Below are positions 235 through 23,013 of a stretch of DNA of 24,438 nucleotides, piece by piece. The number at the start of each line of letters is the position of its first letter. The stretch's first letter is position 1. The position numbers and the translations under genes are program-made. The DNA is taken from contig DAOVEU010000001.1 in the NCBI GenBank assembly GCA_030668805.1, forward strand, positions 1 to 24,438, written 5' to 3'. The stretch comes from Desulfobacterales bacterium. GTDB taxonomy: Bacteria > Desulfobacterota > Desulfobacteria > Desulfobacterales > C00003060. Below the pieces are notes generated by a model. That model was not told the DNA's origin and did no database searches. It saw only the letters and a program-made list of their open reading frames with translations.

Positions 235-1356
235 CTACCCCTCCTTTGGTTCCAGCAAAGCTTCCAGAGACTTATCCCACACGTCAAAAAACCCGTCCGG
301 CCAGCGGTCAATTCTTCCGTTGCGATCAATTTTAGGTGATATGATAGAAATCTGACTCTGTTCTTCCTGCTCCAGGCGCTCAAAGAAATGGAGTTGCACT
401 TTGTCTGGCTCAATCTTTCCATTATAAACCCCAAGGCGAATACCGTTCAGCACATGATCACTGTGGGTCTCCACCACAACCTGTATTCCGCAACTCGCTG
501 CGAGGGCAACCAGTTCACCTATTTGAACTTGACCCATGGGGTGAAGATGTGCTTCGGGATTCTCAAACAGGAGCAAGGACCCGGGAGGTGAAGAAAGCAA
601 CGCAACGATTACGGGCAGAGTATAAGTTATTCCAAAACCTACATTGGTGCACCTGAATCTATTACTCACTTGCGTTCTGGTTTCAAAGGAATACAGGAGG
701 CTAACAAGATCCATCCCAGGATGTGAATCAATATGAATGCGAGTACCTGGACTTACAAGGCCCATCCACGCTTCGACTTGATCGCGGAGCTTGAGAGATT
801 CAGTACTAGGATGTGCAAGAAGTCTATGGTGTATATCTTCACTGCCAAATACTGAGAGAAAATGCTCTGTATATTCGCCCCGTGTGCCGAGTTGTCTGTG
901 CTGTCGAACGTGGAAATCGGACATTTGGAAGGATGTTCTTGGCCCCGTACGCTCCGCCTCAAGATAGTGAAAATTGTCATTGAAAAGGGAGGATTCAAAT
1001 ATTTCAGAGGATTCTGGGCCAACTGCGATATTCATCACGTCTGCTTTCTGGTCGTAATCAAAACGCCATTGTCCTTGCGTCCCTTCTTCCAAAACCACTT
1101 CAAAACCAATTATTTCCTCTTCTGCGTCTCCACAAAGGGCGTCATGTGCTGTACCAAGACGCACCAGATCCCCATTTAGGGCAAGGCCAGTGGACCGTAA
1201 TAACCCCATCCTAAAAGATTGACGCAACAGAATCAAAGCTTGCAGCAAAGAAGATTTTCCTGTTCCGTTGAGACCTGAAAGCAAAGTAAGCGGCCTCAAC
1301 TCGAACACTTGATCTCTGAAGCATTTGAAATTCTTTAGGTGTACTAACCGTATCAT
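235..1356 (-). CDS. ABC/AAA-type ATPase with C-terminal DUF3696-like domain (Menshen NsnB-like)
   Basis: Walker A GLNGTGKS, Walker B/D-loop FENPEAHLHP, H-loop VETHSDH, C-terminal IDRNGRIDRWPDGFFD typical of DUF3696. ATGA overlap with the DUF262 stop. Confidence 0.88.
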   Translation of the reverse strand: MIRLVHLKNFKCFRDQVFELRPLTLLSGLNGTGKSSLLQALILLRQSFRMGLLRSTGLALNGDLVRLGTAHDALCGDAEEEIIGFEVVLEEGTQGQWRFDYDQKADVMNIAVGPESSEIFESSLFNDNFHYLEAERTGPRTSFQMSDFHVRQHRQLGTRGEYTEHFLSVFGSEDIHHRLLAHPSTESLKLRDQVEAWMGLVSPGTRIHIDSHPGMDLVSLLYSFETRTQVSNRFRCTNVGFGITYTLPVIVALLSSPPGSLLLFENPEAHLHPMGQVQIGELVALAASCGIQVVVETHSDHVLNGIRLGVYNGKIEPDKVQLHFFERLEQEEQSQISIISPKIDRNGRIDRWPDGFFDVWDKSLEALLEPKEG

Positions 1357-2510
1357 GAGAGAACCTCCTTGAGCAGATGTTCGATGGCGGAAAATCTGAG
1401 ATTAACCCTGGCAATACTACCAGTACCCTGAGAGATGGCGCTTTCAAAATCACGGTCGTTCATGAGTTTAATGAATTCGTCAATCAAAGAATCCTTTCTT
1501 TTTTGCAACGTTGCAAGTTGTTTTTCATTTAGGAGATTAAGATTCACAGACCAAGCCTCAAACAATGCCTTGTTGATGGGGTATCTCCAACCATTTCTCT
1601 GATATAACTTGCGGAATGCATATCTTCCAAAAAGATTATATGCTGCGACCATCGAACGCAAGAATTGTCCTTTTAGATTCTCTATTTCGGGTTTAGGCAT
1701 TCTATTAATAGTTGCCATTGCCCTATTCAAAAAACTATCAAAATCCTTGCTCTTGTAATTAGTGTATGGAGAAATCGTGAATGCCATAAAACGAAGGACA
1801 CACTCCTGATCGGCCATTCTTTTGTCACGAATGCCATAATCCGTAGCCTTCTTAAATTCGCTTGAATTGGCTAAAACGGTAACCATTTCTGTCGCGCTGC
1901 CTTGATTGAGCGCATGCCTGATTTCTTGTGGTGATAACGGAAGTCCTCCAGTGTTAATTCTTTTGAAAATATTGAATTTGACCTCAGATGGCGTATCTCG
2001 TTCAATCAAGTAAACGGTAACTTGTGTTTCATTGATCCGTCGTTGAAAAGCTCTGGGCAATTCATCAAAGACCTTTCCTTCAATCTGATCAAGGAACTCT
2101 AAACCAGTGAGTTTGAGTCCTTTTTCGATCACAAATCTTTTGATTGTTGTTAATCTTTGTAGGCCATCTACAATCAACCACCTGTCTTCGTCAGTTGCAT
2201 CCATATAGAACGCTGGAAGCGGAATACGAATCAACATGGATTCGATCAAACGGCTTTGTACCGCATCACTCCATATTCCGGCCTTTCGCTGAAAGCCAGG
2301 CGTTAGATCCAGCTCTCCCTCCCTAATTCGTGCAATTATTAAATCCATAGACATTGGCCTAGTTTCCACCCTAATTAAAGTAGGATCAAATGGTTCTGTA
2401 ATTCTTTCGTCGCCTTCTGTATCCTCTGTCTCGACACCTGTGTGGTCAACGGCGCAAACGACTTCACTTTGATCAAGAAAGCTCCTTTTTGATTGTTCCG
2501 TATCTGTCAT
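1353..2510 (-). CDS. DUF262 (ParB-like/GmrS-type) domain protein (Menshen NsnA-like)
   Basis: DUF262 motifs PGFQRK..W, LIESMLIRIPLP, IVDGLQRLTT, FKRINTGG.PL. RBS AGAGGTG upstream of the ATG. Confidence 0.9.
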   Translation of the reverse strand: MTDTEQSKRSFLDQSEVVCAVDHTGVETEDTEGDERITEPFDPTLIRVETRPMSMDLIIARIREGELDLTPGFQRKAGIWSDAVQSRLIESMLIRIPLPAFYMDATDEDRWLIVDGLQRLTTIKRFVIEKGLKLTGLEFLDQIEGKVFDELPRAFQRRINETQVTVYLIERDTPSEVKFNIFKRINTGGLPLSPQEIRHALNQGSATEMVTVLANSSEFKKATDYGIRDKRMADQECVLRFMAFTISPYTNYKSKDFDSFLNRAMATINRMPKPEIENLKGQFLRSMVAAYNLFGRYAFRKLYQRNGWRYPINKALFEAWSVNLNLLNEKQLATLQKRKDSLIDEFIKLMNDRDFESAISQGTGSIARVNLRFSAIEHLLKEVLS

Positions 2511-2527: not shown

Positions 2528-5308
2528 CTAACTCTTCCCATTCGTTCTCGTAATTGCCTGATCATACCACATTAAGAGTTTGGGGTCTTCTTGGAGAACC
2601 TTTTCGGGAATTTTGCGAGCTACATCGATGATGATTTGGTAATTACGTTCCTGCCAGGCTTTCTTGAAACCGGCGCGCACGGCTTCGAGGCGGAACACCT
2701 TTAGGCGTTTTTGCTTTGATTCCAGGTATTCGTTGAACTCTCGCAATAGGGCCCGCTCACGCAGCTTTTCCAGGTCACTTGCTTTATTCGGATCAGGTAC
2801 GTACCATCGGTCCTTGGCTTTGGAGCGAAGGGCTGGGTCGTCCTTGGACAAGTTGCGCAGTTCCTTGAAGTTCGAGGACAGGTAGCTGTGGATCTGGCTT
2901 GGCACCTCGCCATTGCCATCGTAACGGAGGAAGTTCTGCTCCAGGAGCTCGGACAGCTCCAGCGCCTTTTCATGCTTCTGCCATCCGCCGATTTCTTTCA
3001 TAAACTGCGGGTGGATGTCCTGGAAGGTCTGCGGCTTCTTGGTGATCTGCTGTTTGAGCCACTGGATGGCCGACGCCTCGTCGGAAACAAAAAGCTGGAG
3101 TTGCAGGACTTCCTTAACGGTCATGCGTTTCTTGTCGTACTCGGCCGCCTGATCGGGTAGGAAATACATGCCGTCGCGTGGGGGGAAGCGTTGTTCCAAT
3201 CCAGCATAGAATTCAGAGGCGGACAAGGGAACCGTCACCCCGCGCTGAATGTGGAAAGCTACCATCCGGTCGAAGAGCAGGAAGTTCTGGCGTTCGGCGA
3301 TGACCTCGGCCTGGCCGTTCTTGGAGACGAATACCGGTAGCTGCTTCAAGTGCGTGCGGACGAAATCCCAGACGCCGCCTTCGGTTCCAGCTTCAATCTT
3401 GAAGCGTTCTTCAAGGCCATCGTTAGGTTTGTAGGCAGTAATAACCAAATCTTGCTTTACTGTATTTGCCAAAGTAAGTTGCTTCGTAGTTCCTTTTTTC
3501 TTGTCGAGAGTTCTAACATCAGCAACGATGAACCCGACCTCATTAATTGCTGTCTGAATAGCCGTCCAAATGGCATTTTGGGAATTATGAAATTCCACTG
3601 TCATCCATCTGCCCGGCTTTAGCATACGATAAACAGATCGCAACGAGTCTCTAATTCGATTTGCATACGCATCAACTGTAATCTCTCTGGTTTTGTTTAC
3701 TACCGCTTCTTCCTTATTTGAAGTGACAACTTTAAGCCAACTCTCAACAACAAAGCTCAACTCTGTGTACTGAAGATTCGCACCGAATGGAGGATCAACA
3801 AAGACGTAGTCCACAGAACTTGGTTGCCCGGAAAGACACTCTAAGCTACTCGCAGACTGAGTTGAAATAATGCTCTTTGTCATAGGTATCTTTGAAAGAT
3901 TTCTCAGCGCTGATATTCCTTTTCCGTTGATGTATTCAATGGGATTAATCTCAAGAGAAAAATACGGGACATAAAGAGTACCTGAAAGTGGTCCGACTAC
4001 CTCCCTCGACCTATTTCCCCGGTGCTGAGGCATATACCTATTCTGCCACGAGCATCTTTGAAGGATGCTTGTCAGCAATCCAAGGAGAGCAGGCTTCTCC
4101 GATCTTAGTTGTTTTGCTGCTGCAGCCAATACATGAAGCGTTCTTGCCGAAAAGAAGTGATGAACATGTGTTAATCCAGCCTCGTCATTACGCCTCGACT
4201 CATCCCCTTCTGGCATTCTACCTGTCGGGCACCAATGCTTGACTGGCCTACCTTCAGCTTTCTTGATGTTCAACAAATCTTCATTATCCGGACATTTCTC
4301 GAAACGCTTGCCTTGAAAATGATAAGACACAAGAACTGGTATACGTTTCACTCTCCGCAATGTTGTACCAAGCAAAGAATCATGAACTGTTTCGTACATT
4401 TTGTCGACAAGCTGGGCTCCGTATTTCTTTGCGTATTTGCGCTCATAGGCAAGATTTGAATCACAAGACGGACATTTGAATGATTTTGCACTAGTATTCT
4501 CATGAAGGTTGACGCACAGATCCCAAAGACTTGCTATGTGGCTGCATTGAGGACACGAGACAACAATAGACCATACTACATAACGTATCTGTCCGACCTG
4601 CGTGCTAATCTGTTTTCGCGTCTTCCAGCTCGCTGGAGCTTCAAGAGATGCGGGCCATCCAGTGTGTTTGGTGTAGTACCAATCTCCGAAGGAGTCGCGA
4701 AGTTCATCTACTAAAGATTCGAGAACGCGAGAGTCATTATTGCTGGGGCGAAAAAGGTTGTGGAAATAGGAAATAAAGCCCGCACTTGTACACAGATCAA
4801 CCAATAGTGTTGCAGCCGTGTTTTGTGAAGCAAGCGATGAACCAATGGCTGTCATGCCGCTTCCAGAGAAACAATCAAGTATCAGGCTACCCTCCGAAGT
4901 GTAATGCGACACATACTTTGCGATAGCCGAGGGCGGCACTTTAGTGTGATAAGTATGTATATAATAGCTTCTGTCTCCTTTTCCCTCACTCACATCTACC
5001 GCGAAGGGTTCCCGTCGATAGTCATCTGATACCGGGTCATACGGCTTTCCATACTGCTTAATAAAATCCTCAATGAAAGGATTCGGACAGGCCGTGTAAT
5101 ACGGCGGATCGGACAGCGCCAGGATGTCCTCGTCCTCGCCGATGGGGAAGCCCTCGATCTTGCGGAACTCCGGGTCCTTAAGCTTCTCACGCAGTTTCTC
5201 CAGGAAGTACTCCCGGCGTTTCTCGTCGTTCTCAAAGGTCATACCGAGGCATTCGACCGGTCCCTTGTCAGTTTTTTGCTGGTCTGTGAATAATGAATTC
5301 TGTTTCAT
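2528..5308 (-). CDS. pglXI: BREX type 3 amino-methyltransferase, PglXI-like
   Basis: Motif I DCFSGSGMT, motif IV VFVDPPF, and two CxxC (CPQC, CPSC) between them. N-terminus (GPVECLG.TFENDE.RR.YF...GFP.G.DEDILALSDPPYYTACPNP) and C-terminus (LREFxEY...RLEAVRAGF...LQEDPKLLMWYDQA) resemble BREX-3 MTases. Co-oriented with brxF/brxC. Confidence 0.85.
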   Translation of the reverse strand: MKQNSLFTDQQKTDKGPVECLGMTFENDEKRREYFLEKLREKLKDPEFRKIEGFPIGEDEDILALSDPPYYTACPNPFIEDFIKQYGKPYDPVSDDYRREPFAVDVSEGKGDRSYYIHTYHTKVPPSAIAKYVSHYTSEGSLILDCFSGSGMTAIGSSLASQNTAATLLVDLCTSAGFISYFHNLFRPSNNDSRVLESLVDELRDSFGDWYYTKHTGWPASLEAPASWKTRKQISTQVGQIRYVVWSIVVSCPQCSHIASLWDLCVNLHENTSAKSFKCPSCDSNLAYERKYAKKYGAQLVDKMYETVHDSLLGTTLRRVKRIPVLVSYHFQGKRFEKCPDNEDLLNIKKAEGRPVKHWCPTGRMPEGDESRRNDEAGLTHVHHFFSARTLHVLAAAAKQLRSEKPALLGLLTSILQRCSWQNRYMPQHRGNRSREVVGPLSGTLYVPYFSLEINPIEYINGKGISALRNLSKIPMTKSIISTQSASSLECLSGQPSSVDYVFVDPPFGANLQYTELSFVVESWLKVVTSNKEEAVVNKTREITVDAYANRIRDSLRSVYRMLKPGRWMTVEFHNSQNAIWTAIQTAINEVGFIVADVRTLDKKKGTTKQLTLANTVKQDLVITAYKPNDGLEERFKIEAGTEGGVWDFVRTHLKQLPVFVSKNGQAEVIAERQNFLLFDRMVAFHIQRGVTVPLSASEFYAGLEQRFPPRDGMYFLPDQAAEYDKKRMTVKEVLQLQLFVSDEASAIQWLKQQITKKPQTFQDIHPQFMKEIGGWQKHEKALELSELLEQNFLRYDGNGEVPSQIHSYLSSNFKELRNLSKDDPALRSKAKDRWYVPDPNKASDLEKLRERALLREFNEYLESKQKRLKVFRLEAVRAGFKKAWQERNYQIIIDVARKIPEKVLQEDPKLLMWYDQAITRTNGKS

Positions 5309-5312
5309 ATCA

Positions 5313-8300
5313 TCAAATTTCTACTCGCATCCACGGCCATGCTTGGTTATCCAACACTTTGGTTGCAAGGAAATTCTCAGCCATTGCCTTCTCATTTTGT
5401 TTGATGGAATTACGTAGCGTATCTGTGTTGTTATTAAGAAAATTAAGGCGACGATGAGTAGCATCACGGAAAAGCGCGGTTGACCGGAATTCATCCTGCC
5501 AAGTCCAAAACCGTCGGTCTGCGCATTTCAATAATAATCGAAACGCCGCCCAAGCATGGATATCATTTTCAACGATCAAAAATCGTTCAAACCAATATTT
5601 GGCCCAAGTATCGGTCTGCCAGTATGAGTAAGCCTTATCTGCAACTCGATCGAACCAGGTTTCCGCTTGGGGTTTGGTTTGCCGTGCCAACCATTCGCCC
5701 GTATTTTTGGCCGCCAGAAGTCCTCGAGTGATCAACGCACGAGACTGTTTAAACATCACTGCGGATTCCAAATCCTGTTCCACCCTGGATTCTAGCCACT
5801 TAAGCCCATTGCCTGCCTGGGCAACTATTACCAATTCCAAAAGATCTTGGTCTGTTTTGCATTGTTGTAAACATTGATCCCATGCGTGTATTACCTCTGG
5901 GACATCACGGGCGTTAAACAGTGCGTAGCGCAACACTGGAATACCTGTTCCCCTGACCACAAAATTAATCGCCGGATGCACCTCGCTCAGACGATGATAA
6001 AGATTCAGTCCTTTTGGTGGATCTATAGAAAGCAGCACCTGGCATAAAGATTCATAGAAACTGCGGCCTTTAATAAGGCGTTGTTTCGAAGATAGGTCAT
6101 CGTCAGTAATACCCGCCAGCCAGATATCGACGAGATCGGGGCGATATCGCACCACTATGTCAAGGGTGTGGATGCTGAAACATGTCGAAAACCAGATATT
6201 ACCAGCTTTGGTTTGTTGTTCGATCGTTTCCCGGATAATTTCTCCTAGGGTTTCCAACTGCTCATCACTTACGGGTTTAAATACATCTGCCAACGATTTC
6301 TGAGGACTGCCTCCAGGCATTCCGCCCCAAAAGGCATCACGGCTGATAAACTTGACCGATCTGGAAAACAGCGTGTCAGATAACCCGATCATATCAATGG
6401 GAATATCACGCGCAGTCAAATCGCATCTCACCTCCGCAGCAGGAAAGTCGGAAGGGATATCCGGCGTTGTTTCGACCAGTGTCTCCCATATACGCTGGAT
6501 GTCTTCAGAATATTGGTTGACTTCATCTTCGTTTCCGTTCCTTTGTGCCACGGCAAATCCTAAATACGAGGGATGCACCCGACAACGCAATTCGGTATAC
6601 GGCAAATTGCTACTGTATCTGGCCAACAGCAAGTTGCCCCAGTGGTTTTCCAGCTTGTGATGATCCGGCTCGCAGGCCCATTGGCCTTGGATGAACTCTC
6701 TGATATCCTTTTCGTTTCCCTGCTTATATAAAAGCTGCAGGACAAGGCTCCGGACAAGACCGTCTTTATGTCCCATTAATGAAACCACTTTGGACGTGAC
6801 GAATTCAGGGATATCCTGAGGATTTACGGACAGAAACCATAGAATGCGGCGAATATCGCAAGCGTCCCCCTCTGCCAATCTTTTATTGACGTCCTGCCAG
6901 TCTCCAGGGGCCTTGAAGAAATGCTCAAATGAAATAAGGTCTGCCGCAGCCGGTGGCCTTATGAGAAGATATGTCAGTTGCTGCTCTGAATCTGCATCCT
7001 GTAAAACTATGTGAAAAAGAAATTTCTCGGTCAGATGTTCATCTTTGCTACCTGTTTCAAGTTGCTCTACTATGCGGCGCCACGCTGCTTGTAGGCATTT
7101 TTTCGCTTCATCGTCCAATATCAGCTCGTGTTTGGTTATCTGTAAGGCCAATTGTCGGAGGGCTATTCCCCTTCGGCTATCAACCGTTTTGGCAATTGAA
7201 CGATAAATTTTCGCAGCAGCATCAGGCGCATATGCACACAACGCAGGTTCAATCTCTTTGAGAAAATCATCTTCTGCGGTCTGATAGATACCCGACCATA
7301 TCTTTTCCACTGGAATTTGATCAGCTAAGGGTGCAAGGATGGCGCCCAGATTAGGGGCAACGGGGAGTTTTGGATCACGGCAAAACGATTGAATTTTACG
7401 TGCAATCCAGGACGGAGCCATATTTTTCCGTTTGAGACAAAGCTCCAATTCTGTCCGGCTCCAAGTAAACACTGAGTTGCAGGGATCTTTTTGATGCATT
7501 TCCAACAACGGGTGGGGTGGAAATAGATTTTCCGGAAGTTTCTTCTGCATTTGGGCTGCATGCTCACTGCCTTCAAAGGAAAGAAGACGGTATGCTGCTT
7601 GTTTGCTTGCAATATGGTCGTGATCCAGTAGAGTCTTGGCGTGCCCTTCGATTTCCGGCCAAAGTGGTTCCGGCGACGAATGTACTACCCAGCCGAACAG
7701 CTCGTACTTGTCAGGAAAATCCATAATCGCCTCGGCTAAACACCCGATAGCAATGGCCCGGAGATAGGGTTTACGCGGAAGATGTGAAATGACAGCAAGT
7801 GCCGCCCGGCCGAGCCGCAACAGACCGTCGTCCATAATAACCGTCAGCCGATAACCGGCAAATTCCATTGGCCCTGGTAAAAGTTCCTGTTCTGCTCGCT
7901 CGGCAATCTTTCTTCTTACCTTCTCAACTTCCTCAGGCTTGTTTTCACGACGCTGGAACGGATGCCCATCAGGATGAATAAGTCCCAGCCAACGCTCAAA
8001 TATCTCGGGAAGTATAGATTGCACAGATGGAGAATTTCTCCAGTGCAGTAAGGATCGCATGAGCAGATCCTGGCCCCATGGATTGTCGTGAATATCAGAC
8101 CATATGACTTCCGCCAATTTTAAATAGGCAACGGGATGGATAGGCAGATAGGCGCTAAAATTTTCATCAGCTTTTTCTTGCAGGTTCTTGCTCTCAAGCC
8201 AAGCCTGCAGTAAGGCCACTTGACAAGGTTCAGGGAAATTATTCTTAAGTGATAGGGCGTGGAGTGCCGCTGATTCTAATATCGCAGCCTTGATATCCAT

Positions 8301-10013
8301 CTCCTGATGAGGTTCCAACCAATTGGCAATGGTTTCATCAAGGCTGGGACCATGATCCAAAACCGCCTGCTCGACTTGGTCCGCTAGCAGAAGACCAAAA
8401 CCTAGGATCAGGCGACGTTTGTCCACCCGGTAAGAACCGGGTTGACCATGCAAGATACCGCCACTCACTAAATCATCGAGCACAGCTTGTCTGTCATTGA
8501 TGAGCGGCAATTGATTAGCGACATCCCTTTCAGAGATTTGATTGCCGCCTTGGCATGCTTTGTCAGCAAATCCTTTTATTATGCCCTGAAATGCCTGATC
8601 ATCAATGGGAAGATTGGTTTTTCGTGACCAGCGATCACGCCAGTCCTCATATATAAGCCTGGCTACTGTAGGATCGCCGCTCTCGGCCATTCGTTGTCTA
8701 TGTTTTACAACCAGGTCAAGATAGCGTGGTTTGCAAATCAACGGCAGCACGCTATCAGCGATATCCGACCGGGCCAAGTGATGTCGCCGAAGAGCGATGT
8801 CCAACTCAGTATCGTCATACGGTGGGAGCGTGGTGGAGCGCACGTTGAGGTGCCGAAGTATCGAAAAGTAGCGTTTCCAATAACCCGTACGGACCGTAAT
8901 TAAAACGGCTATTTGCTCCAGCCAGGGCGAATTCATAAGCCCTTCAATGAGTTCCCGCCACCATTGAGGAGTGCGGCGTTCATTGATGCCGTCCAGTACC
9001 AGAAGAGCAACTGGTGAATCTCCAACAGGGCGTTGCGCCCATCGCTCTAAACGCTTTTCCCAATATGTATGATGCTGTTTGCCTATCTGTCGAGCAATGG
9101 CTTCAGATAACAGAGATGCCGGCCCATTTGATCTTGGATGAGAAGAGGAAAGAAAAATTACAGGCGGAAAATTTTCAGTGTTCTGTATTTGCCAATTAAG
9201 CCATGACGCAACAGCCCATGTTTTGCCATCCCCTTCATCCCCCAAAAGCACAAAGTGGGATTGTGTCTTTGACCAGGAAGATAACCAGTCGTCCAATTCC
9301 TGCCACGCTGTGCTGCGTTTGACCAAGTCGACTTCTTTTGAGGCGACATGAAGTACCTGTCCAAAGGCGCTTCGGCTCGCATTTTCTGTGCAGAAACGTT
9401 GCCTTAACCACTGATTCTGTTCAGCACGCCAATGCTCATAGCCTATATTTGCGGCTGTAAAACTGTTTTTAAGCCGTTCTATGACGGTCGTAAAATTTGA
9501 GTTCTTTGCGATATTCTCCAATTCAATCTGGACCCGCTGTCTCTCTGGCTCAGACGAGATGGAAGCGAGGTGGTCCATAACTATCTGCGCACCATAAGCA
9601 CAGAGGCATTCCAAAGAACTAGGTGAACCATCTCCGGCTGAGATGGCGCGAAATTCTACACCTAGTTGGACCGCCTGTTTATCAAGTAACGTCAATAGTT
9701 GATCAGGAATATCCCTGCTGGCAATCAATACCCAGAGATCTAAATCAGGTATGTCAATGTGGGCTTGCACCAATTCGGCCAATAATTCCCGTTCGTTAAG
9801 TTCAGTTTCTTTGCCATAACGCTTACACTCCACCGCAATGATACTTCCTCCATGGCGGTCAGAACTCATGTCACGACCGGATTGGCTGCCGGAGCGAGCA
9901 AGATGAAAAGATCTACCAGTCAGGTTTTCCAACAGACCGGCAATCAAACCTTCAAAGCCGCCCTTTCCAGAGTGATAAATTCTACGCAACTCTTCAATAA
10001 GACTATGATTCAT
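5313..10013 (-). CDS. Large PD-(D/E)xK (Mrr-like) endonuclease - STAND/NACHT-like NTPase - helical-repeat protein (Avs/NLR-like antiviral protein)
   Basis: N-terminal GFEGL...SGRD...AVECKRY nuclease signature, Walker A GDEGDGKT, Walker B LLVLDGINE, sensor ITVR, LPPYDDTE and CKPRYL NACHT-like motifs, then about 1000 aa of predicted helical sequence. Confidence 0.8.
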   Translation of the reverse strand: MNHSLIEELRRIYHSGKGGFEGLIAGLLENLTGRSFHLARSGSQSGRDMSSDRHGGSIIAVECKRYGKETELNERELLAELVQAHIDIPDLDLWVLIASRDIPDQLLTLLDKQAVQLGVEFRAISAGDGSPSSLECLCAYGAQIVMDHLASISSEPERQRVQIELENIAKNSNFTTVIERLKNSFTAANIGYEHWRAEQNQWLRQRFCTENASRSAFGQVLHVASKEVDLVKRSTAWQELDDWLSSWSKTQSHFVLLGDEGDGKTWAVASWLNWQIQNTENFPPVIFLSSSHPRSNGPASLLSEAIARQIGKQHHTYWEKRLERWAQRPVGDSPVALLVLDGINERRTPQWWRELIEGLMNSPWLEQIAVLITVRTGYWKRYFSILRHLNVRSTTLPPYDDTELDIALRRHHLARSDIADSVLPLICKPRYLDLVVKHRQRMAESGDPTVARLIYEDWRDRWSRKTNLPIDDQAFQGIIKGFADKACQGGNQISERDVANQLPLINDRQAVLDDLVSGGILHGQPGSYRVDKRRLILGFGLLLADQVEQAVLDHGPSLDETIANWLEPHQEMDIKAAILESAALHALSLKNNFPEPCQVALLQAWLESKNLQEKADENFSAYLPIHPVAYLKLAEVIWSDIHDNPWGQDLLMRSLLHWRNSPSVQSILPEIFERWLGLIHPDGHPFQRRENKPEEVEKVRRKIAERAEQELLPGPMEFAGYRLTVIMDDGLLRLGRAALAVISHLPRKPYLRAIAIGCLAEAIMDFPDKYELFGWVVHSSPEPLWPEIEGHAKTLLDHDHIASKQAAYRLLSFEGSEHAAQMQKKLPENLFPPHPLLEMHQKDPCNSVFTWSRTELELCLKRKNMAPSWIARKIQSFCRDPKLPVAPNLGAILAPLADQIPVEKIWSGIYQTAEDDFLKEIEPALCAYAPDAAAKIYRSIAKTVDSRRGIALRQLALQITKHELILDDEAKKCLQAAWRRIVEQLETGSKDEHLTEKFLFHIVLQDADSEQQLTYLLIRPPAAADLISFEHFFKAPGDWQDVNKRLAEGDACDIRRILWFLSVNPQDIPEFVTSKVVSLMGHKDGLVRSLVLQLLYKQGNEKDIREFIQGQWACEPDHHKLENHWGNLLLARYSSNLPYTELRCRVHPSYLGFAVAQRNGNEDEVNQYSEDIQRIWETLVETTPDIPSDFPAAEVRCDLTARDIPIDMIGLSDTLFSRSVKFISRDAFWGGMPGGSPQKSLADVFKPVSDEQLETLGEIIRETIEQQTKAGNIWFSTCFSIHTLDIVVRYRPDLVDIWLAGITDDDLSSKQRLIKGRSFYESLCQVLLSIDPPKGLNLYHRLSEVHPAINFVVRGTGIPVLRYALFNARDVPEVIHAWDQCLQQCKTDQDLLELVIVAQAGNGLKWLESRVEQDLESAVMFKQSRALITRGLLAAKNTGEWLARQTKPQAETWFDRVADKAYSYWQTDTWAKYWFERFLIVENDIHAWAAFRLLLKCADRRFWTWQDEFRSTALFRDATHRRLNFLNNNTDTLRNSIKQNEKAMAENFLATKVLDNQAWPWMRVEI

Positions 10014-10099
10014 TGGCTGTGCGAGATAAAGCGTTATTAGACCGAATTCTAAGCCTCAAACAAATCGCCTTTTCGACGCGTAAGAGTATTTGTGCAAAT

Positions 10100-10272
10100 T
10101 GCTAATGTTTCTACGCATTAAATCCAGCATTAAATAGGCGTATTGCTGCTATCAATGCTCGTGAGCATTTGAGTCGAACTTTCATTATGATTAATGGACA
10201 TAAAACGGCTTTGCATCATTTATTGTTGCATTTTTCTCCATAAATGGCTTCAAAAATGGCATTTATCATGGC
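10100..10272. repeat. Degenerate repeat block A: 16-bp palindrome and 12-bp-period doublets
   Basis: AATGCTC-GT-GAGCATT perfect palindrome at 10154-10169; GCATTAAAT x2 (10115, 10127); AAATGGC x2 (10242, 10254). Confidence 0.65.
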
Positions 10273-10403
10273 GTGGCGAGTCTGATCGCGCAGACCGAAG
10301 TCACGAGCAAAGTCGCTATCGCGGTCACAGCACAAATGGTCTTCGTCAGTAACCCGGCCTTTTGCCAAGCCTCTATGTCTTTGAATCTTTCAATCCTCGC
10401 AAC
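10271..10403 (-). pseudogene. 5' remnant of a four-helix-bundle (23S rRNA IVP / Avd-like) gene, frameshifted
   Basis: Translates as VARIERFKDIEAWQKAGLLTKTICAVT, then after a 1-nt shift near 10321 as DSDFARDFGLRDQTRHA. This matches the family pattern F.D..AWQKA..L...I...T....F..D..L.DQ.R.A. No intact start, and the 3' two-thirds are absent. Confidence 0.65.
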
Positions 10404-10554
10404 TCGAAGCTACTACCTGCCTATAGCCAAATGCTCGCAGATTGCCCGCGATCAATTGCCCGCGGGATTCCGGTGTGCAACTTTCTATATGCGATTCTAC
10501 ATGAGTTCATATAGCTGGTCACATAATGGGAGCGCTTATGCGAACTCCAATCCG

Positions 10555-10720
10555 ACCGAGCATTAGAACCGGTTAAATGCTCGCTTTAATGCTCGTGAGC
10601 AATTTTCCGAGCAATTCTTTGTAGAATTGCTCCAATAGTTGCCGGTAGAAATGCCCATAAAATGGCACATTCCATTTTGGTGAGCCATTTTTGCGTATAA
10701 ATGGCTCATGAAATGGCGCA
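10555..10720. repeat. Degenerate repeat block B, diverged direct copy of block A
   Basis: AATGCTCGTGAGCAAT at 10588-10603; CGAGCATT/AATGCTCG inverted pair at 10557-10583; 10-bp inverted repeat TGAGCCATTT/AAATGGCTCA at 10681-10708; ATAAATGGCT-N4-AAATGGC at 10697-10717 (also at 10240-10260). Confidence 0.65.
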
Positions 10721-10729
10721 AATCCATTT

Positions 10730-11002
10730 CTATCCATTTCCGTCACCCAAATATACCCATCGCGATCCTCTTCCTTTACCCTGAAGCATCACAGCGCCTT
10801 CATGCTGTAATTCCGCCATGAGGCGCTTCACCTGCCCGCGGTCAAAATGGGTAATCTGCCGGATTTCCTGGTTAGACAGGCCTTGGTCGCCCCGATTCTC
10901 TCGCTGTTTGAGCACACTCAGCACCCGGGTCTTGGCCTCTTCCCAGTCGATGCGCCTATCCCGGTCCGAGTGGCCCGGTCCAAGAAGTCTTGCGAGGTAA
11001 CC
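10730..11002 (-). pseudogene. 3' remnant encoding a C-terminal winged-HTH (as in AlbA/RecG-C-type ATP-binding regulators)
   Basis: The frame is open from the codon right after the DUF4276 stop: GYLARLLGPGHSDRDRRIDWEEAKTRVLSVLKQRENRGDQGLSNQEIRQITHFDRGQVKRLMAELQHEGAVMLQGKGRGSRWVY. It has a wHTH with a G.GRG wing and no start codon for the first 26 codons. Confidence 0.55.
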
Positions 11003-11626
11003 TTATTCTTCCCTGCCTTCTATCTCACGAGTCAGCGTCTCGAACAGTCTTTCACAATGTGGCGCTTTGGACCGAACGATTTGGGAGTCGATAAGGCAAA
11101 GCAACTTTGACCCGTGCCGGATCTTGTGGTAGGGGCCTTTGCGACTGTCACGCGTAGCATTCTGCAGAGCCGTTTCAAGTACCGCTTTGTCAATTGCTTC
11201 GACTTCGTCCCTCGCCGGGATCACCCCACGCCTGAATCCATTGCCATAAAACGATTCCAGTATGTCGATGTCAGCTACTAACCATGCCTCCATCATCTGA
11301 ACCATCAAATGGCAATGTTCGTCCAAAACACCAGCAGGATTCCATCCATCTCTCTCCTGAAGATGGCGCCACGCGGTTTGGTTCACTGGCCCTTCGGCAT
11401 CAACAAGCAAAACATTGAAAGCATCTGGATGGCTTCTCAAGGCCATTTTGAAGTTGTCAAAAGCCGCATTCCGCGGACCGCAGGCGATGATATTCCAGCG
11501 GATTCGACGTTCCCGGGCAAGACCGCGGAGCTGGCTCAGGAATTGTCCAAGACCCCGGCGAATAGCGGCCTTAGTATCTTTGCCGTCTCCCCCGCCCTCA
11601 GCATATATACGGATCTCATTTACCAC
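11003..11626 (-). CDS. DUF4276-family (TOPRIM-like) protein
   Basis: IYAEGGGD TOPRIM-type glutamate motif, LLVDAE, MVQMMEAWLVAD, YHKIRHG. Probable start is GTG 11626 (AGGAGG 6 nt upstream, overlapping the ATPase stop) rather than 11656. Confidence 0.8.
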   Translation of the reverse strand: MVNEIRIYAEGGGDGKDTKAAIRRGLGQFLSQLRGLARERRIRWNIIACGPRNAAFDNFKMALRSHPDAFNVLLVDAEGPVNQTAWRHLQERDGWNPAGVLDEHCHLMVQMMEAWLVADIDILESFYGNGFRRGVIPARDEVEAIDKAVLETALQNATRDSRKGPYHKIRHGSKLLCLIDSQIVRSKAPHCERLFETLTREIEGREE

Positions 11627-12894
11627 CGGGTCCCTCCTATTTCCCCCATGCGCCACAGTTCTCCCAAGGAATACTTATCCAACCATTCCTTGAGCTGGTC
11701 CTTTTTTAAACGTCTTAAGTGAGTCCCTGTATCATCGCGTTCGCACACAAGCACACTTTCCGGAGTATCTGAGAGAGCCGATACAAGAATATCGGAATGG
11801 GTTGTAACGATCAACTGTGTCTTGTCCGATGCCTCAATAAGTAACTCAGCGATAGTTGGGAGGATATCAGGATGCAGCCCTAGTTCTGGTTCCTCAATGC
11901 ACAATACTGAAGGAGGTGCTGGATGGCAAAGCAGTGTCAACAAACACAAGTACCGAAGGGTGCCGTCTGACAGGCGTGTGGCTGGAATGGGCTGGGTCAG
12001 CCCCTTTTGGTGCAGGAAAATCTGTACGGTTCCACCGTGTATCCTGGTAGTAATATCCTCTATGCCCTCGTCAAAGATCTTCAGTTTTTCGATAATTAAC
12101 CTTTTTGTTCCCGGCTGGTGCTGCAAATCATTTAGTACCAGGCCAAGATTGCTGGCATCTTCTATAAGAAAATCTTCAGGAAGGTCTGCTTTTTGGGGAA
12201 GTCGCGGCGGTGTATAACGCCCCAAATTCCACTCCCGGTATAATTCAATCCTTGAGAATTCATTGGCCAGATATGTGAGTTCAGGGTATTGGTCCGGGTC
12301 TTTTCGTTGGGACAGCACCGACTGGTGAATATCCAGATCTTCCCTTCGAAGTGACCGAACCATGCGCTTTTGCCCCGTCGCTCTAGGAAAGGCTTTAGCA
12401 TAATGGCTGAGAGATTCTTGGACAGTACGGGTCTCCTTTACATCAGGGGGGGTGATTATGGCATTCAAAACAGGATTGCCACAATTATAACGATAGAAAA
12501 AATAAACATCTTCTTCATCAGGCTTTGTCGGACGCTCGCACTCAACAGCCTCATCCACCAGCTCAAACCGTTGCCCGACCTTAGTAAAACTGAGCCGGTA
12601 CCTAAGGGGAATAGGTTCATCGGGGTAATTCAACGTTACATTGATTTCAGCTACTGGGGTACCCTTCTTTCCTTTGTAAAGCCACTCGGTCACACCTCCG
12701 CCTTCACGGATTGGGGCAGTCAGATCCCTCGGTGTAGCTTGCAGAAGAGCAAAGGCCTCTATTAGATTGGACTTACCCGAACAGTTCGGTCCGATCAGTA
12801 CGTTCAACGACTCCAATTCTATTTCGGCAGTGTCTTCCCCGTAAGAGAGGAAATTTGTTAGCTGAATGGTTCTGATAAACTTATGCTCTGTCAT
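11620..12894 (-). CDS. ABC-type (AAA_21-like) ATPase
   Basis: Walker A GPNCSGKS, signature LSDGTLR, Walker B IEEPELGLHP, H-loop VTTHS. ATG 12894 has GGGAG 6 nt upstream, directly after the brxC stop. Confidence 0.9.
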   Translation of the reverse strand: MTEHKFIRTIQLTNFLSYGEDTAEIELESLNVLIGPNCSGKSNLIEAFALLQATPRDLTAPIREGGGVTEWLYKGKKGTPVAEINVTLNYPDEPIPLRYRLSFTKVGQRFELVDEAVECERPTKPDEEDVYFFYRYNCGNPVLNAIITPPDVKETRTVQESLSHYAKAFPRATGQKRMVRSLRREDLDIHQSVLSQRKDPDQYPELTYLANEFSRIELYREWNLGRYTPPRLPQKADLPEDFLIEDASNLGLVLNDLQHQPGTKRLIIEKLKIFDEGIEDITTRIHGGTVQIFLHQKGLTQPIPATRLSDGTLRYLCLLTLLCHPAPPSVLCIEEPELGLHPDILPTIAELLIEASDKTQLIVTTHSDILVSALSDTPESVLVCERDDTGTHLRRLKKDQLKEWLDKYSLGELWRMGEIGGTRW

Positions 12895-12904
12895 TATATT
12901 CTCC

Positions 12905-15900
12905 CTATTCCAGCACAATCCTGACCTTGCTCGGATCTTTGCCTTTTGTGAGATCAGCCAAATATTCGTCGAAGCGCTTCTTCAATTCATCCGGTGTTGC
13001 CGGGGCACCACCTCTTAGCAGCGCGGATCTCAGGTCTTCAATCCTTACCTCTACTTTTACCAGGCCTGAGAGCACTTCCCGCACAGCATGGATGAAATCA
13101 TGTCCAAGGTCTTCCGGAAGGGTCTGAGTTTTGATGAAGGCTTTCAAATGCTTTCTGTCTTTGGCTTTAAGCAAGCCCAAGTCTTTTTGGATTGTGGGGT
13201 CCTCAAGGTTTGTGAGGAGTGTCCGAGTCCACGAGGAAAGAAGATTGTCCAGTTGATCGTCCATTTGGTGGAGAAGGGTGGCCGCCGCCACCTTAGACTT
13301 TTCAGCGCCAGGTTTATAAGAACAGTGCGGGCAAACAGGCGAGTCTTTTAGATCTGGCTCCGTCAACTGGTAGCAGGGTGTGAGGTCTGCGAGGCGGTTC
13401 AGAAAATCAATCAGATGGGCACTTGGCATCACATCGATGACAGAGATCTCTTGAAGGATTTTTAGGCGTTCGTCATGCATAAGCTGGGTCTTCTTCTTGT
13501 CATCAGTAATCCCCAGCCGAGCCTTCGCATGAAGAGACATGTATTCCTTCACATAGGCTTTCTTGAGATCGACGAGCTTACGCATGACCTGCTGGCGGAA
13601 AGTTGCAGCTTTCCGCTTATCAGCGTCCATGATCTGAGATAGAACCTGATCCCTTGTTTTCTTCGCTTTCCCGGTCCACGCGTGTTCACCAGGCATTACA
13701 GCTTCGGCAGTAGAGAGGTAGGAGGAAATAGGCCCGACCTCATCCGCCATGCCTTTTAGGGACTCAACCACTTGAAGCGTATTAAGGCCTTCCCGATGTG
13801 ATTTCACATCTTTGGCTGTATACCGGAAGTTCTTGAGCTTGCCAGGAGTCGAATAGGCCTGGAGAGATTCCAGAAATGTCTTTGTTTGCTCCAAGCGGGC
13901 CAGCAAATTCTCTGCCTCCTCTTCGGTAAGCAGGCTCTGGCCCCAGATGGGGAATCGGCCGTGCACATACTGCTGCGATAGAACCAATTTCTCTACAGAC
14001 TGGGCGACGGCCTGCTGAAGCTGTTGGACCGGCTCCTCTTTTCCCAGGGTGACGTTGCTGGCAAGCCCTGGCGCAAGGCCCATAAGTTCAAACAGAGCCT
14101 TAAGGGCTGGGAGATTCCATTCCTTGGGTCGTTCGATGTGTTTGAAGCTGGCCAGGTCATCAACAGCCGTAGCGCAAAAAACAGAAAGGCTTGTAGCATC
14201 GAATTTCTTCCCTGGAATGGCAAGAACCAAATCACCCGAGTACACCAAGCTCGCTAGAACGACCACAACCCACTCCGGCTCAAGCCTGTAAATGTTCGGA
14301 GCCAAGTATTCGACCCCATACGCATCCTGGATGATTTCAGATCGGTTAACTACCTGGCCTTCGCCCTTTTTGCCCAGAAGATCCAGAATATGTTTTGCAT
14401 AGCTGGAATTCTGCGGAGCGAGTCTTTCACCGTCCAGCAACTCCAAAGCGTCGAGCACTGCTGTGGCCTGCTTTGTTCGGGTGGCACCTGCAATCCATCG
14501 AAGGGAATCCTGGGCTGCCTGCATTCGGTTTTCTCTGGTGACCAGCACCGAAAAGTGAGGATATTCCGGCGATAGATCAGCAAAGTGTGTCTCCAGACAA
14601 ATGCCAGCCATTGCATTGATAAGATCTCGGAAATTGATGCGCTCATGAGATGGAACCCCTGCCAGGTCGCGGATATTCTTGTCCTTTGCCCATTCCACAA
14701 GGGATTTCTTTCTTCCCTGATAGGTAATCTGGAATGCTGAGCTCATGTGCTCTTTGAGCCACCTGACCAGCTTGCGGAGAAAATCTTCCTCCGCCTTGGA
14801 TTCGTACACGCTCTTAGCATGCCCGGAGGATGTGGAAGCCAGGTCAAGGGCCGCAGCATATTTGTTCAGCGTGTCATTGAAATCATCGTCCGCTCCGGTG
14901 AGGCGGAGAAATACTTCGTCGGCCTTCTTTTCATCTTTAAAACGCGGGGGATCATGGGGTTGAACGAAGTACAAGTAAAAGTCCCGAGGTGGCACGGCTG
15001 TGGAGCGTTCGTTAGGAGAACCGAAGAAGAGGTAACCCTGACGGGCGGCCTTATGCGTATACCACTCCAGCTCATGTTCCCAGATTTTGTAGCCGGTGAT
15101 ATAGGTCTGATCTGTGCACTCCATGAGCCTTTTCAGCCCCTCGTAGTAGTAGCGATCAAGTTGTTCACTATCCAGGCTGTCTGCTCGTTTTTCGATAATG
15201 GCGTCAAAGTCTTCAGTCTTCTTGAGATCCAGATAATACTGGCGATTATCCGGATTTGAGGAAATGAACTGTCCGCTCACCGTTTTGTGGATTTCCCGGA
15301 GTACGGTTTCCACCTGGGAAACGAGATCCTCTGCCGGCTCGCCGCCCAAGTCCTCTATGCCAGGCTGGTATAGACAAAGGGTGTCACGCAGTTCTTCTGC
15401 GGTGGCTCCCAGAGGGGCGTGAATGTCACCGGTAGTAAGCCGATGGACTGACAAAGCATTAATGATTCGTAGAGCCATGGGCTTGTAGGCCGGTCGGGTA
15501 AAAGCTTGGTTGATACGGGATTCCAGGACCTGGCCACAGTCGATCACTGCTTTAATATCCGGCACAGCTCGGAAAGATGGGTTCTCACGCAATGTGTCCC
15601 AATAGCTATCATAGGCGATGAGCCCCGGCTGGTCTTCAGGAACATCCTTTTCCAGCAGGCGTTTCATGGCAAAGGATAATGTCTTGAGTATTTCGCGCTT
15701 CTCGACAGCGGTAACACGTTCAAAGGTATCGATATAGTCCGGATGAACCGGAAACAGGCGGACAAACTCGTCCGTCCGCTCATTCATATCTCCGTAGAAC
15801 TTGGCAAAGGAAGTGAGGTGCTCTCTTATTCTGGCCTGTTGTTCAATGGTCTTCTTAAGGAGACGTTCAGCGACGACAAACTTAACGTCTCTTCGTGCAA

Positions 15901-16636
15901 TGAGGATCTGCTGAAAGCGATCCTTAACGCGACGAAGGCTATCAGCAACGAATGAAAACCTGGGGCTGTCAAAAATGGCTTCTTGTACACCAGCGATGAA
16001 TCGAAAACGAATGTCCTTACAAACCTCACCAATTTCTCTGAGGAAATTCAGGTCCAGGATAAGTTCCTGGTCTTTCCGAGTGCGCAGATAGTCGAGAAGT
16101 TCATCTACGACAAGGAGTAAGCCACGGTCCGGGAACGTCTTGTGAAATGTTGCCATCATTTCTTCAAAGGCCGGTTTATTACTGGACACCTCACTCGCAG
16201 ACGGGAAGGTATAATCTATTTCCCACGAGCCTAAACGCTCCTCCAGAGCAGCCAATACAATGTCCCGCAGAGACATAGTCGTTGAGCCAATCTCAGTACG
16301 GATTACTTTGAACTTCCCCGCTATTTCTTTCGCAGCCTTTGAAACCCGGTCGCTGATAATAATGTCTGCAAAGTCGGCGTTCTCTGCGGCTGCTGAGATC
16401 AGGGACATCAAGTGAGATTTGCCGGTACCATAATTGCCTACGACCAAGAGCCCCTTATTGTCGGTTGGATAATCGACTTGTAGGTGTGTGAAAACAAGTT
16501 CGGTGAGCTTTTCCGCCATTTCATCTGAGATCACGTACGTTGAAACAAGTTGCCGCGCGGAGTCCTCATGATCAGCATCACGGAGTTGAACCACGGATTC
16601 GATGGGCTCAAATTGGATAAGTTCCTTGTATTTCAT
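12905..16636 (-). CDS. brxC: BREX type 3 large P-loop ATPase BrxC (DUF6079-like)
   Basis: Walker A GNYGTGKS, Walker [11 protein letters not shown]-terminus [19 protein letters not shown]-terminal C..CPHC and [10 protein letters not shown]. About 1243 aa, directly after brxF. Start is ATG 16636 (track uses TTG 16642). Confidence 0.85.
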
Positions 16637-16684
16637 CTCCAAAACCCTTCCATGCTAACGTTATCAATTTGGACGTCACATCTC

Positions 16685-17152
16685 TCATTCCGGTGTCACC
16701 ACCTGAAGGTCGCGGCAAGGGTAGCGGCGATATTCGGGATGTTCGGGAGCGGCATAGACCATGTAATTGTCCTTAATTTCTCCGTTCCAGGTGGCAACAA
16801 TTGTTCTATTTCGGGAAAGCCCTTGAAGGAGCCTCAACGGATCTTGTTTAAGAGACTTTTCAAACAGAATCTCAATGTTGTCCAGGAGTACCACATCACT
16901 CCGGTTCTGTCTCAAGATGTCCTCCAAAAGCCGGGATGCCTGAAGTGCGCGCTGCCGAGTCGTCAGTTCCAACATGCGTCGGGAGATCTCAAGATTCACA
17001 TTGATAAGGGGTGCCCCCAGACCCTGCCGCACTTCTTTGAGGGCTGATGTCTTCCCAAAGCCCGATGGAGCGACAACAAGAACGAGCCTGTGATATAGTT
17101 CAGGGGCTTGCTTGATCTTCCCGATTATTTGGTTAGAAAGGGGCTCTACCAT
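16685..17152 (-). CDS. brxF: BREX-3 small P-loop protein BrxF
   Basis: 155 aa with APSGFGKT, VLLDNIEILF...L.QDPLRLL and HPEYRRY. AAGGA RBS. First gene of the operon. Confidence 0.85.
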   Translation of the reverse strand: MVEPLSNQIIGKIKQAPELYHRLVLVVAPSGFGKTSALKEVRQGLGAPLINVNLEISRRMLELTTRQRALQASRLLEDILRQNRSDVVLLDNIEILFEKSLKQDPLRLLQGLSRNRTIVATWNGEIKDNYMVYAAPEHPEYRRYPCRDLQVVTPE

Positions 17153-19966: not shown

Positions 19967-19996
19967 TTGACACCATCTCGGCATCCGTGTTACCAC
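19967..19996 (+). promoter_or_regulatory. Candidate sigma-70 promoter for the integrase
   Basis: Perfect TTGACA (19967-19972), 18-bp spacer ending in TGn, weak -10 TACCAC (19991-19996). Confidence 0.3.
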
Positions 19997-20059
19997 TGCA
20001 TCCACGCTGACATCTGGACGGAAAGGAGGTGGTCGGAAAAGTGGAAAGGGGCGTTTCAT

Positions 20060-21388: not shown

Positions 21389-21393
21389 ATATA

Positions 21394-21480
21394 TGGTGCC
21401 GAAGGCGGGATTTGAACCCGCACGGGCGTAACCCACTGCCCCCTCAAGACAGCGTGTCTACCAGCTTCCACCACTTCGGC
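21394..21480 (-). tRNA. tRNA-Leu (anticodon GAG), CCA encoded
   Basis: Acceptor stem GCCGAAG/CTTCGGC+ACCA, anticodon arm CTGTC-TTGAGGG-GGCAG, long variable arm, GGGTTCAAATCCC T-arm; 87 nt. Confidence 0.97.
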
Positions 21481-22932: not shown

Positions 22933-23001
22933 CAAGCCCTTGAACCCGAAATGGCTTTTCTGCTGCGCTCCAAGGCCAGCCGGTTAAGGACAGCGAAGCT
23001 C
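22927..23001 (+). other. Integron attC site with defective R' box
   Basis: R'' TTCTAAC, 5-bp spacer, L'' CTT(G)AACC, central imperfect stem, L' GGTTAAG (perfect complement apart from the extra base), 6-bp spacer, then GAAGCTC where GTTRRRY is expected. Confidence 0.75.
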
Positions 23002-23013
23002 AAAAGGAAAAAT

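Follow-up and report, generated by a model that had tools for sequence, protein, structure and literature searches.

Does a gene for a very large NLR-like protein that lies inside a phage-defense operon of the bacteriophage exclusion (BREX) type serve that operon, or does it travel with it as an independent defense gene? The question arises from a stretch of 24,438 nucleotides (the window), which is one whole contig of a 67%-complete metagenome-assembled genome (MAG) of a Desulfobacterales bacterium (GCA_030668805.1, DAOVEU010000001.1). The gene concerned, P0001, lies on the minus strand of the window in a co-oriented run of brxF, brxC, HEC-01A, HEC-01B, a spacer, P0001 itself, pglXI, NsnA, and NsnB. 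We consider it likely that P0001 is an autonomous single-gene NLR-like (Avs/bNACHT-type) sensor–effector of antiphage abortive infection that is carried as BREX-embedded cargo and is not a BREX subunit. This reading is favored because full-length open reading frames (ORFs) persist beside scars of pglXI or outside BREX, and because distant homologues never occur near BREX.

Domain architecture of P0001

P0001 is a NACHT-type NLR-like protein, and its gene and parts are laid out as follows.

5313-10013, minus strand: NLR-like gene P0001, 1566 amino acids, stop codon included in the coordinates; open frame, with about 1400 homologue clusters, mostly of 1550-1600 amino acids
9444-10013, minus strand: N-terminal Mrr-like PD-(D/E)xK nuclease effector, residues 1-190, with invariant D48, E62, and K64
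9816-9878, minus strand: catalytic motif GRD ... VECKRY, with GRD at residues 46-48 (9870-9878) and VECKRY at residues 61-66 (9816-9833)
8154-9308, minus strand: NACHT NOD module with nucleotide-binding, helical, and winged-helix parts, residues about 236-620, from Pfam NACHT and Foldseek
9219-9242, minus strand: Walker A GDEGDGKT, residues 258-265, with invariant G258, E260, G261, G263, K264, and T265
8979-9002, minus strand: Walker B LVLDGINE, residues 338-345, of the NACHT-type hhhhDGxxE form, with invariant D341, G342, N344, and E345
8883-8903, minus strand: putative sensor-1 segment LITVRTG, residues 371-377, with invariant T373 and R375
5316-8153, minus strand: C-terminal HEAT-like alpha-solenoid, presumed sensor, residues 621-1566, from an AlphaFold2 (AF2) model

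An earlier note, made from the letters of the window, had described a 1566-residue ORF with a PD-(D/E)xK motif, Walker A and B motifs, and a helical C-terminus of about 1000 residues, and had taken its product for an NLR-like receptor of bacteria in which a nuclease and a STAND ATPase precede a helical sensor region. This description is borne out, the ATPase being specifically of the NACHT type. The frame is open and intact together with all of the motifs, and the ATG at 10013 is a supported start because residues 5-22 are conserved in homologues. Every catalytic and NTPase residue listed above for the nuclease, Walker A, and Walker B is invariant in 23 nuclease-bearing homologues of 42-81% identity, an invariance far beyond chance, and the P-loop pattern GxxxxGK[ST] is present with G258, G261, G263, K264, and T265 invariant in 24 homologues. 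The segment LITVRTG could represent sensor 1, judging from its resemblance to the NACHT TSR motif.

AF2 models of the two halves of P0001 were built on family alignments. In the model of residues 1-640 (pLDDT 85.1, pTM 0.80), the nuclease core is of alpha/beta type, with the order helix, strands, helix, strand, and aligns with the N-terminus of Avs4. Pfam NACHT (PF05729) covers residues 254-391 at 32.3 bits versus a gathering cut-off of 26.7 (E 1.1e-7), and its score is borderline in several homologues (20.7-32.9 bits). The best solved match of this half in Foldseek was Avs4 with portal (8dgf; E 1.3e-11, 14% identity, 656 aligned columns), after which CED-4, NLRP7/9/14, NLRC4, NOD2, and Apaf-1/Dark were ranked (E 1e-11 to 1e-6).

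The last 946 residues (621-1566; pLDDT 86.6, pTM 0.86) were modelled as an alpha-solenoid of about 55 helices with a few small hairpins. Its matches in the PDB were generic HEAT/ARM/TOG proteins only (SF3B1, CAND1, importins), at a template modelling (TM) score of about 0.2 and a VIA-align Z of 9 or lower; the fold search of the ESM Atlas returned generic HEAT clusters only (TM 0.3-0.5), and the feature search of the same resource was uninformative for the sensor (scores of 0.86 or lower). Two unnamed AFDB cluster heads, A0A3B7M4E4 and A0A1M3JRZ7, match the solenoid at TM 0.79 with 14-17% identity. Sharing of one sensor by two different proteins is known from Avs7 and Dsr1. No Avs chain appeared in the top 50 for the C-terminal model by Foldseek or VIA-align, large helical repeats being structures that align poorly. 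The sensor shows the same degree of conservation as the NOD, with mean column identities of 52% and 56%, respectively, and across phyla it contains 56 invariant columns, many of them Trp. An apparent stand-alone sensor protein, P0202, was rejected as a fragment at a contig edge.

With only generic HEAT-solenoid structures matching it, the sensor can be assigned to no described Avs type, as the earlier note had also concluded. No model in PADLOC (E 0.01 or better) or NCBIfam fits P0001, whether Avs or bNACHT, and family profiles, made for the full length as well as for each half, found nothing meaningful among all PDB sequences, including 8dgf. Avs4, or antiviral STAND type 4, is represented by EcAvs4 (PDB 8dgf), has the phage portal protein as its trigger, and was reportedly described by Gao and colleagues in 2022. 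P0001 and Avs4 (about 1540 amino acids) are of similar length and have the same three parts, an Mrr-like PD-(D/E)xK nuclease followed by a STAND NTPase and a large helical sensor. Unlike Avs4, to which it is 14% identical in alignment, P0001 has no Avs profile match, is NACHT in Pfam, and has a sensor that retrieves neither Avs4 nor Avs3 among its leading PDB matches.

A parallel in layout among the bNACHT proteins is bNACHT25, which likewise has a PD-(D/E)xK REase, a NACHT module, a helical C-terminus, and a catalytic Asp at position 48, but it has 752 amino acids with an NCH1 tail of about 170 residues (575-747), whereas P0001 has 1566 with a 946-residue solenoid. Membership of P0001 in the bNACHT25/bNACHT32 group (NACHT clade 6 of Kibby et al. 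2023; WP_001702659.1) was rejected for want of detectable similarity, with a BLASTP E above 2 and an hhalign probability of 0.3% between P0001 and bNACHT25 taken from an E. coli genome. P0001 also resembles, by annotation only, the 'REase/Mrr_cat+NACHT' entries of Kibby et al. clade 2 (KAF0246040.1 from Planctomycetes and PKN68616.1 from Deltaproteobacteria), which come from similar phyla and have an REase at about 17-130, NACHT from about 214-240 to about 712-737, and no annotated C-terminal domain; the tested clade 2 proteins bNACHT20, 27, 30, and 37 have architectures other than that of P0001. The Westiellopsis protein TBR56486.1 (clade 2 in Table S1 of Kibby et al.), considered as a possible equivalent of the homologue at locus L014, is probably different, since the latter has an Mrr_cat N-terminus and no HEAT_2 match. 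The family of P0001 is probably among the 589 STAND clades and 684 sensor clusters of Lee et al. 2026 (PMC13581612).

The pglXI junction and its history

The second part of the question concerns the position of the gene, for which the following features are needed.

16685-17152, minus strand: brxF, BREX-3 marker; NCBIfam BREX_3_BrxF 198.6 bits (cut-off 50), PADLOC BrxF
12905-16642, minus strand: brxC, DUF6079 type; Pfam DUF6079 1826 bits, PADLOC BrxC 1996 bits
5306-5315, minus strand: junction of NLR stop, 4 nucleotides, and pglXI ATG, kept in relatives of 63-80% identity, truncated-pglXI loci included
2528-5308, minus strand: pglXI, BREX type 3 methyltransferase; PADLOC PglXI, E 0, 1241 bits

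The locus is of BREX type 3, with brxF, brxC, and pglXI all present and co-oriented. The statement that P0001 is embedded in BREX holds for the genes at hand, as brxF and brxC lie upstream and pglXI downstream, all on the minus strand; it does not extend to brxHII, pglZ, and brxA, none of which is on the contig, which ends after NsnB, and the 67%-complete assembly yielded no PglZ. The spacing of 4 bp to pglXI is confirmed by the junction sequence GAA ATT TGA tgat ATG AAA, with the stop codon at 5313-5315, the spacer at 5309-5312, and the pglXI ATG at 5306-5308. A junction of the form stop-CGAT-ATG-AAA, including the pglXI start, recurs in NLR relatives of at least 63% identity, in which pglXI is preserved to different degrees (identities are to P0001).

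Window, P0001: full pglXI
L056, P0130, 72% identity: full pglXI, then NsnA/NsnB at 83% identity
L071, P0011, 70% identity: full pglXI
L055 (the same as L007), P0007, 76% identity: pglXI truncated to about 161 codons
L053, P0010, 72% identity: short pglXI remnant
L047, P0012, 70% identity: short pglXI remnant
L054, P0013, 71% identity: short pglXI remnant
L072, P0015, 63% identity: short pglXI remnant
L045, P0008, 75% identity: bare CGATA(T) trace
L070, P0006, 79% identity: bare CGATA(T) trace

The NLR ORF is full-length at every one of these close-relative loci. In distant members the protein ends right after WPWM and is followed by unrelated DNA, the junction being confined to the clade of at least 63% identity. 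Because the pglXI-linked members are scattered across this whole clade in a maximum-likelihood tree, the BREX-3 position is ancestral to the clade and has been lost repeatedly; homologues linked to BREX do exist outside the window. Among 43 distant loci, no match to BrxF, BrxC, or PglXI of the window was found by tblastn, and in 30 genomes with distant homologues PglZ was absent from 23, the other seven having no PglZ in the 10 kb flanks. Relatives show uniform identity from domain to domain whether they are linked to BREX or not, and the sensor is not more diverged in those without BREX. The closest homologue of all, P0005 (80% identity, contig ENA ERZ23486238), lies between a type I restriction-modification (RM) hsdS gene (Methylase_S) and an AlbA_2/Schlafen gene.

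The earlier note had taken the position inside BREX as a hint that the protein could sense a BREX inhibitor or a perturbed BREX complex. In this scenario P0001 would be a guard or accessory of BREX, monitoring PglXI, BrxC, or a phage protein directed against BREX (for example a DNA mimic like Ocr, or an S-adenosylmethionine lyase), and firing when BREX is disabled. The paradigm of the guard idea is the PrrC anticodon nuclease in the EcoprrI type I RM operon, and precedents for guarding are PrrC for EcoprrI and PARIS for Ocr. P0001 is comparable to PrrC in being an effector gene nested in a methylation-based defense operon, where it is co-oriented and begins the ancestral junction to pglXI, with full pglXI retained in the window, L056, and L071; its nearest relative points the same way, being embedded in a type I RM locus with hsdS on one side and downstream genes on the other, and the operon of P0001 carries a PARIS-like pair, PARIS being a known anti-restriction sensor type (PMC12839542).

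Nevertheless, we regard a guard function as unlikely, and the present results do not support the inference from position. At least seven close relatives keep an intact ORF of 1567-1569 amino acids beside a pglXI cut to 0-161 codons, so the NLR is neither useless nor lethal without PglXI, and the sensor of such relatives is no more diverged than that of the others. None of the 43 distant loci has type 3 BREX genes, and none of the 30 genomes has PglZ within 10 kb. A PrrC-like guard would be expected to occur (almost) only inside the system it guards; unlike PrrC, which is almost exclusively embedded, the members of the P0001 family nearly always lie elsewhere and persist where the host system has been lost. 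If the trigger were an anti-restriction protein that diffuses, its sensor would still function without BREX, and this form of the idea is weakened only by the lack of family-wide RM/BREX linkage.

A narrower version, which we find doubtful, would restrict the wiring to BREX-3 to the clade of at least 63% identity, where the junction would couple translation to pglXI, the solenoid would sense inhibition or damage of the BREX methyltransferase or an anti-BREX protein, and the pglXI scars would mark lineages that later became free-standing. If this is true, an epigenetic defense system would for the first time have a guard of the NLR type.

Autonomous cargo of this kind has published precedents. 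As in published embedded BREX cargo (2024 preprint; BrxU in the pEFER BREX; PARIS/OLD modules, NAR 2026 gkag035), P0001 is co-oriented and nested between core BREX genes, and such cargo is viewed as independent or back-up defense with shared regulation (2024 preprint; NAR 2026 gkag035). What differs is that the main texts of both papers name no NACHT or NLR protein among such cargo, and that here an ancestral junction leaves pglXI scars. The NLR gene is probably transcribed together with BREX, to which it would add a second layer of defense that works by a different mechanism, and the BREX embedding of the subclade most likely reflects cargo, not function. The scars at the pglXI 5' end offer a nucleotide-resolution case of a single-gene sensor that entered a BREX operon, travelled along with it, and outlived it. 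Current concepts are unchanged, because the architecture and the embedding are both established patterns.

The pglXI genes of the relatives show rearrangements of their own. At L056 (region L056:4874-9377) a YopA-like gene (7822-9138) lies between pglXI and NsnA, and it is followed at 9207-9377 by a duplicated fragment of the pglXI 3' end that is 63% identical to residues 870-926 of the window PglXI. The duplicate looks like an insertion scar, which suggests that the pglXI 3' end is an insertion point for cargo. Compared with L056, the window PglXI is 87% identical in its C-terminal 85 residues and 51% in residues 53-834, and compared with L071 it is 49.5% identical overall, while the NLR (70-72%) and NsnAB (83%) on either side have diverged far less; this mosaic between relatives is consistent with swapping of the specificity region.

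Family, effector swapping, and possible triggers

Full-length homologues of about 1550-1600 amino acids were recovered down to 39% identity by a word-indexed search, and an exhaustive phmmer search gave 1412 clusters (50% identity) at E 1e-3 or better, of which 701 reached E 1e-30 or better. Among the members in public databases are WP_106458684.1, MBN1875695.1, MBW1741593.1, and UniProt B8HS68. The homologue loci come from Cyanobacteria, Chloroflexi, Desulfobacterota, Acidobacteria, Planctomycetes, Gammaproteobacteria, and other groups. On the same chassis of NOD and sensor, the first ~190 residues are swapped for a TIR domain in P0119, P0214, P0235, and P0261, for a CHAT caspase-like protease in P0144, P0150, P0166, and P0168, and for a trypsin-like protease in P0205. 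Such an exchange of effectors is a signature of STAND proteins with a role in immunity.

At 39 homologue loci, the two closest ORFs on either flank were surveyed, and these neighbors included type IIG RM (5 loci), Schlafen/AlbA_2-HATPase_c_4 (3 loci), prokaryotic Argonaute (2 loci), JetD, a type I methyltransferase, and PDC candidates, with no recurrent partner gene among them. MmeI-like neighbors were considered as BREX-1 PglX and rejected, as they are type IIG RM enzymes. P0001 is single-copy in its own MAG, and searches of 24 same-genus and 16 same-order genomes did not find the gene. Single copy, patchy distribution, defense neighbors, and effector swapping together fit a horizontally mobile single-gene defense system. 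Schlafen-HATPase_c_4 genes also follow the NLR gene in L055/L007, in addition to adjoining 3 of the 39 distant loci. In a Chloroflexi MAG (L008:14493-23768), two more ORFs of about 1500 amino acids stand in tandem directly downstream of a family member and may form an array of paralogous NLR-like genes with it.

Analogy to Avs3/Avs4 and bNACHT25 suggests how P0001 could act, from the kind of trigger through oligomerization and DNA cleavage to abortive infection. The HEAT-like solenoid of 946 residues would bind the trigger, which could be a phage protein that is conserved or a host factor altered by the phage, and binding would release the NACHT module for ATP binding and oligomerization. The oligomer would then bring the N-terminal Mrr-like PD-(D/E)xK domains together, and the clustered nuclease domains would cut DNA indiscriminately, by which the infection could be aborted. 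The triggers of Avs7-21 are conserved phage folds, and direct binding of such folds is how most of the characterized Avs families with a large, conserved helical sensor operate (PMC13581612). In bNACHT25, antiphage defense needs the nuclease residue D48, is lost in D48A, and works through DnaJ (PMC12169576).

Several points weigh against an autonomous nuclease-armed sensor. On the effector side, Pfam Mrr_cat reaches 17.4 bits on the N-terminus of P0001, below its cut-off of 21 (E 0.005), and the loop with D48 (residues 39-54) has a pLDDT below 50 in the AF2 model; homologues score 17.6-18.7 bits on Mrr_cat, and precomputed PF04471 matches exist for P0051, P0074, P0080, and P0089. As for BREX, the junction has been kept while the proteins diverged by about 37%, which could be due to selection to keep the two genes expressed together and not to common descent alone, and the family may have a preference for methylation-based host systems, considering P0005 in a type I RM locus. 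Finally, the unusually strong conservation of the sensor fits a conserved phage fold and equally a host target.

This last point bears on the possibility that the same abortive-infection effector senses infection indirectly, with the solenoid watching a host factor perturbed by infection, such as a chaperone or translation factor, and not a phage structural protein. A sensor as conserved as the NOD across phyla would suit a universal host ligand, and precedents are provided by bNACHT25, acting via DnaJ (PMC12169576), and by Avs7, which uses EF-Tu as a co-factor (PMC13581612). We consider indirect sensing improbable for P0001, given the direct binding of phage folds by most characterized Avs with large helical sensors and data that indicate no particular host partner. 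That P0001 is no defense protein, and is instead a STAND-type signalling or regulatory ATPase like MalT or AfsR or a decaying passenger, is very unlikely: many STAND clades are non-defense (PMC13581612) and no PADLOC or NCBIfam model recognizes P0001, but there is no DNA-binding output domain, the conserved nuclease triad is interchangeable with TIR, CHAT, and trypsin-like death effectors, the neighborhoods are defense islands, the ORF and all motifs are intact, and the distribution is patchy (none of 40 related genomes).

With P0001, the bacterial NLR/Avs repertoire gains a large, phylum-spanning, and so far uncharacterized NACHT family, which counts about 1400 clusters when grouped at 50% identity, and its sensor, a well-folded and highly conserved domain of about 950 residues, is a candidate for the trigger screens used on Avs families.

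Other features of the contig

The remaining features surround the BREX genes and the NLR gene.

19967-21388, plus strand: tyrosine integrase; Pfam Phage_integrase and Arm-DNA-bind_2
21397-21480, minus strand: tRNA gene abutting the integrase; Rfam tRNA, 47.4 bits
10014-11002, no strand: ORF-poor spacer, about 1 kb long, that separates HEC-01B from the NLR gene on the upstream side of the latter
11003-12918, minus strand: second embedded module, PARIS-like HEC-01A plus HEC-01B
11620-12918, minus strand: HEC-01A, ABC/OLD-type ATPase; PADLOC E 1e-184, Pfam AAA_21
11003-11656, minus strand: HEC-01B, DUF4276; PADLOC E 8e-76, Pfam DUF4276
235-2510, minus strand: third embedded module, Menshen-like NsnA plus NsnB, after pglXI
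1353-2510, minus strand: NsnA (GmrSD_N/DUF262); PADLOC E 2.5e-147
235-1356, minus strand: NsnB (AAA_15/DUF3696); PADLOC E 2.5e-120

The BREX cluster is probably on an integrative island because the tyrosine integrase abuts a tRNA gene, and this pair (19967-21480) is likely the island boundary. Beyond the tRNA, at 22951-23754, lies a gene for a protein with NYN plus OST-HTH/LOTUS domains that has no relation to the NLR gene.

Neither blastn nor tblastx relates the spacer 10014-11002 to the flanks of any homologue, and promoter and terminator scans of it were not above shuffled expectation. It contains an ORF at 10730-10924 on the minus strand, whose product of 64 amino acids is winged-helix-turn-helix-like with weak Pfam matches to RPA_C and HTH_IclR. 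The spacer is probably a gene remnant, and the ORF has no similarity to the Schlafen/HATPase_c_4 neighbor of L055.

The HEC-01A/HEC-01B pair stands directly after brxC, and the start of the ATPase gene overlaps the brxC end. At L056 (9398-12636), NsnB is followed by a 317-amino-acid gene without a Pfam match, the counterpart of which in the window runs off the contig end.

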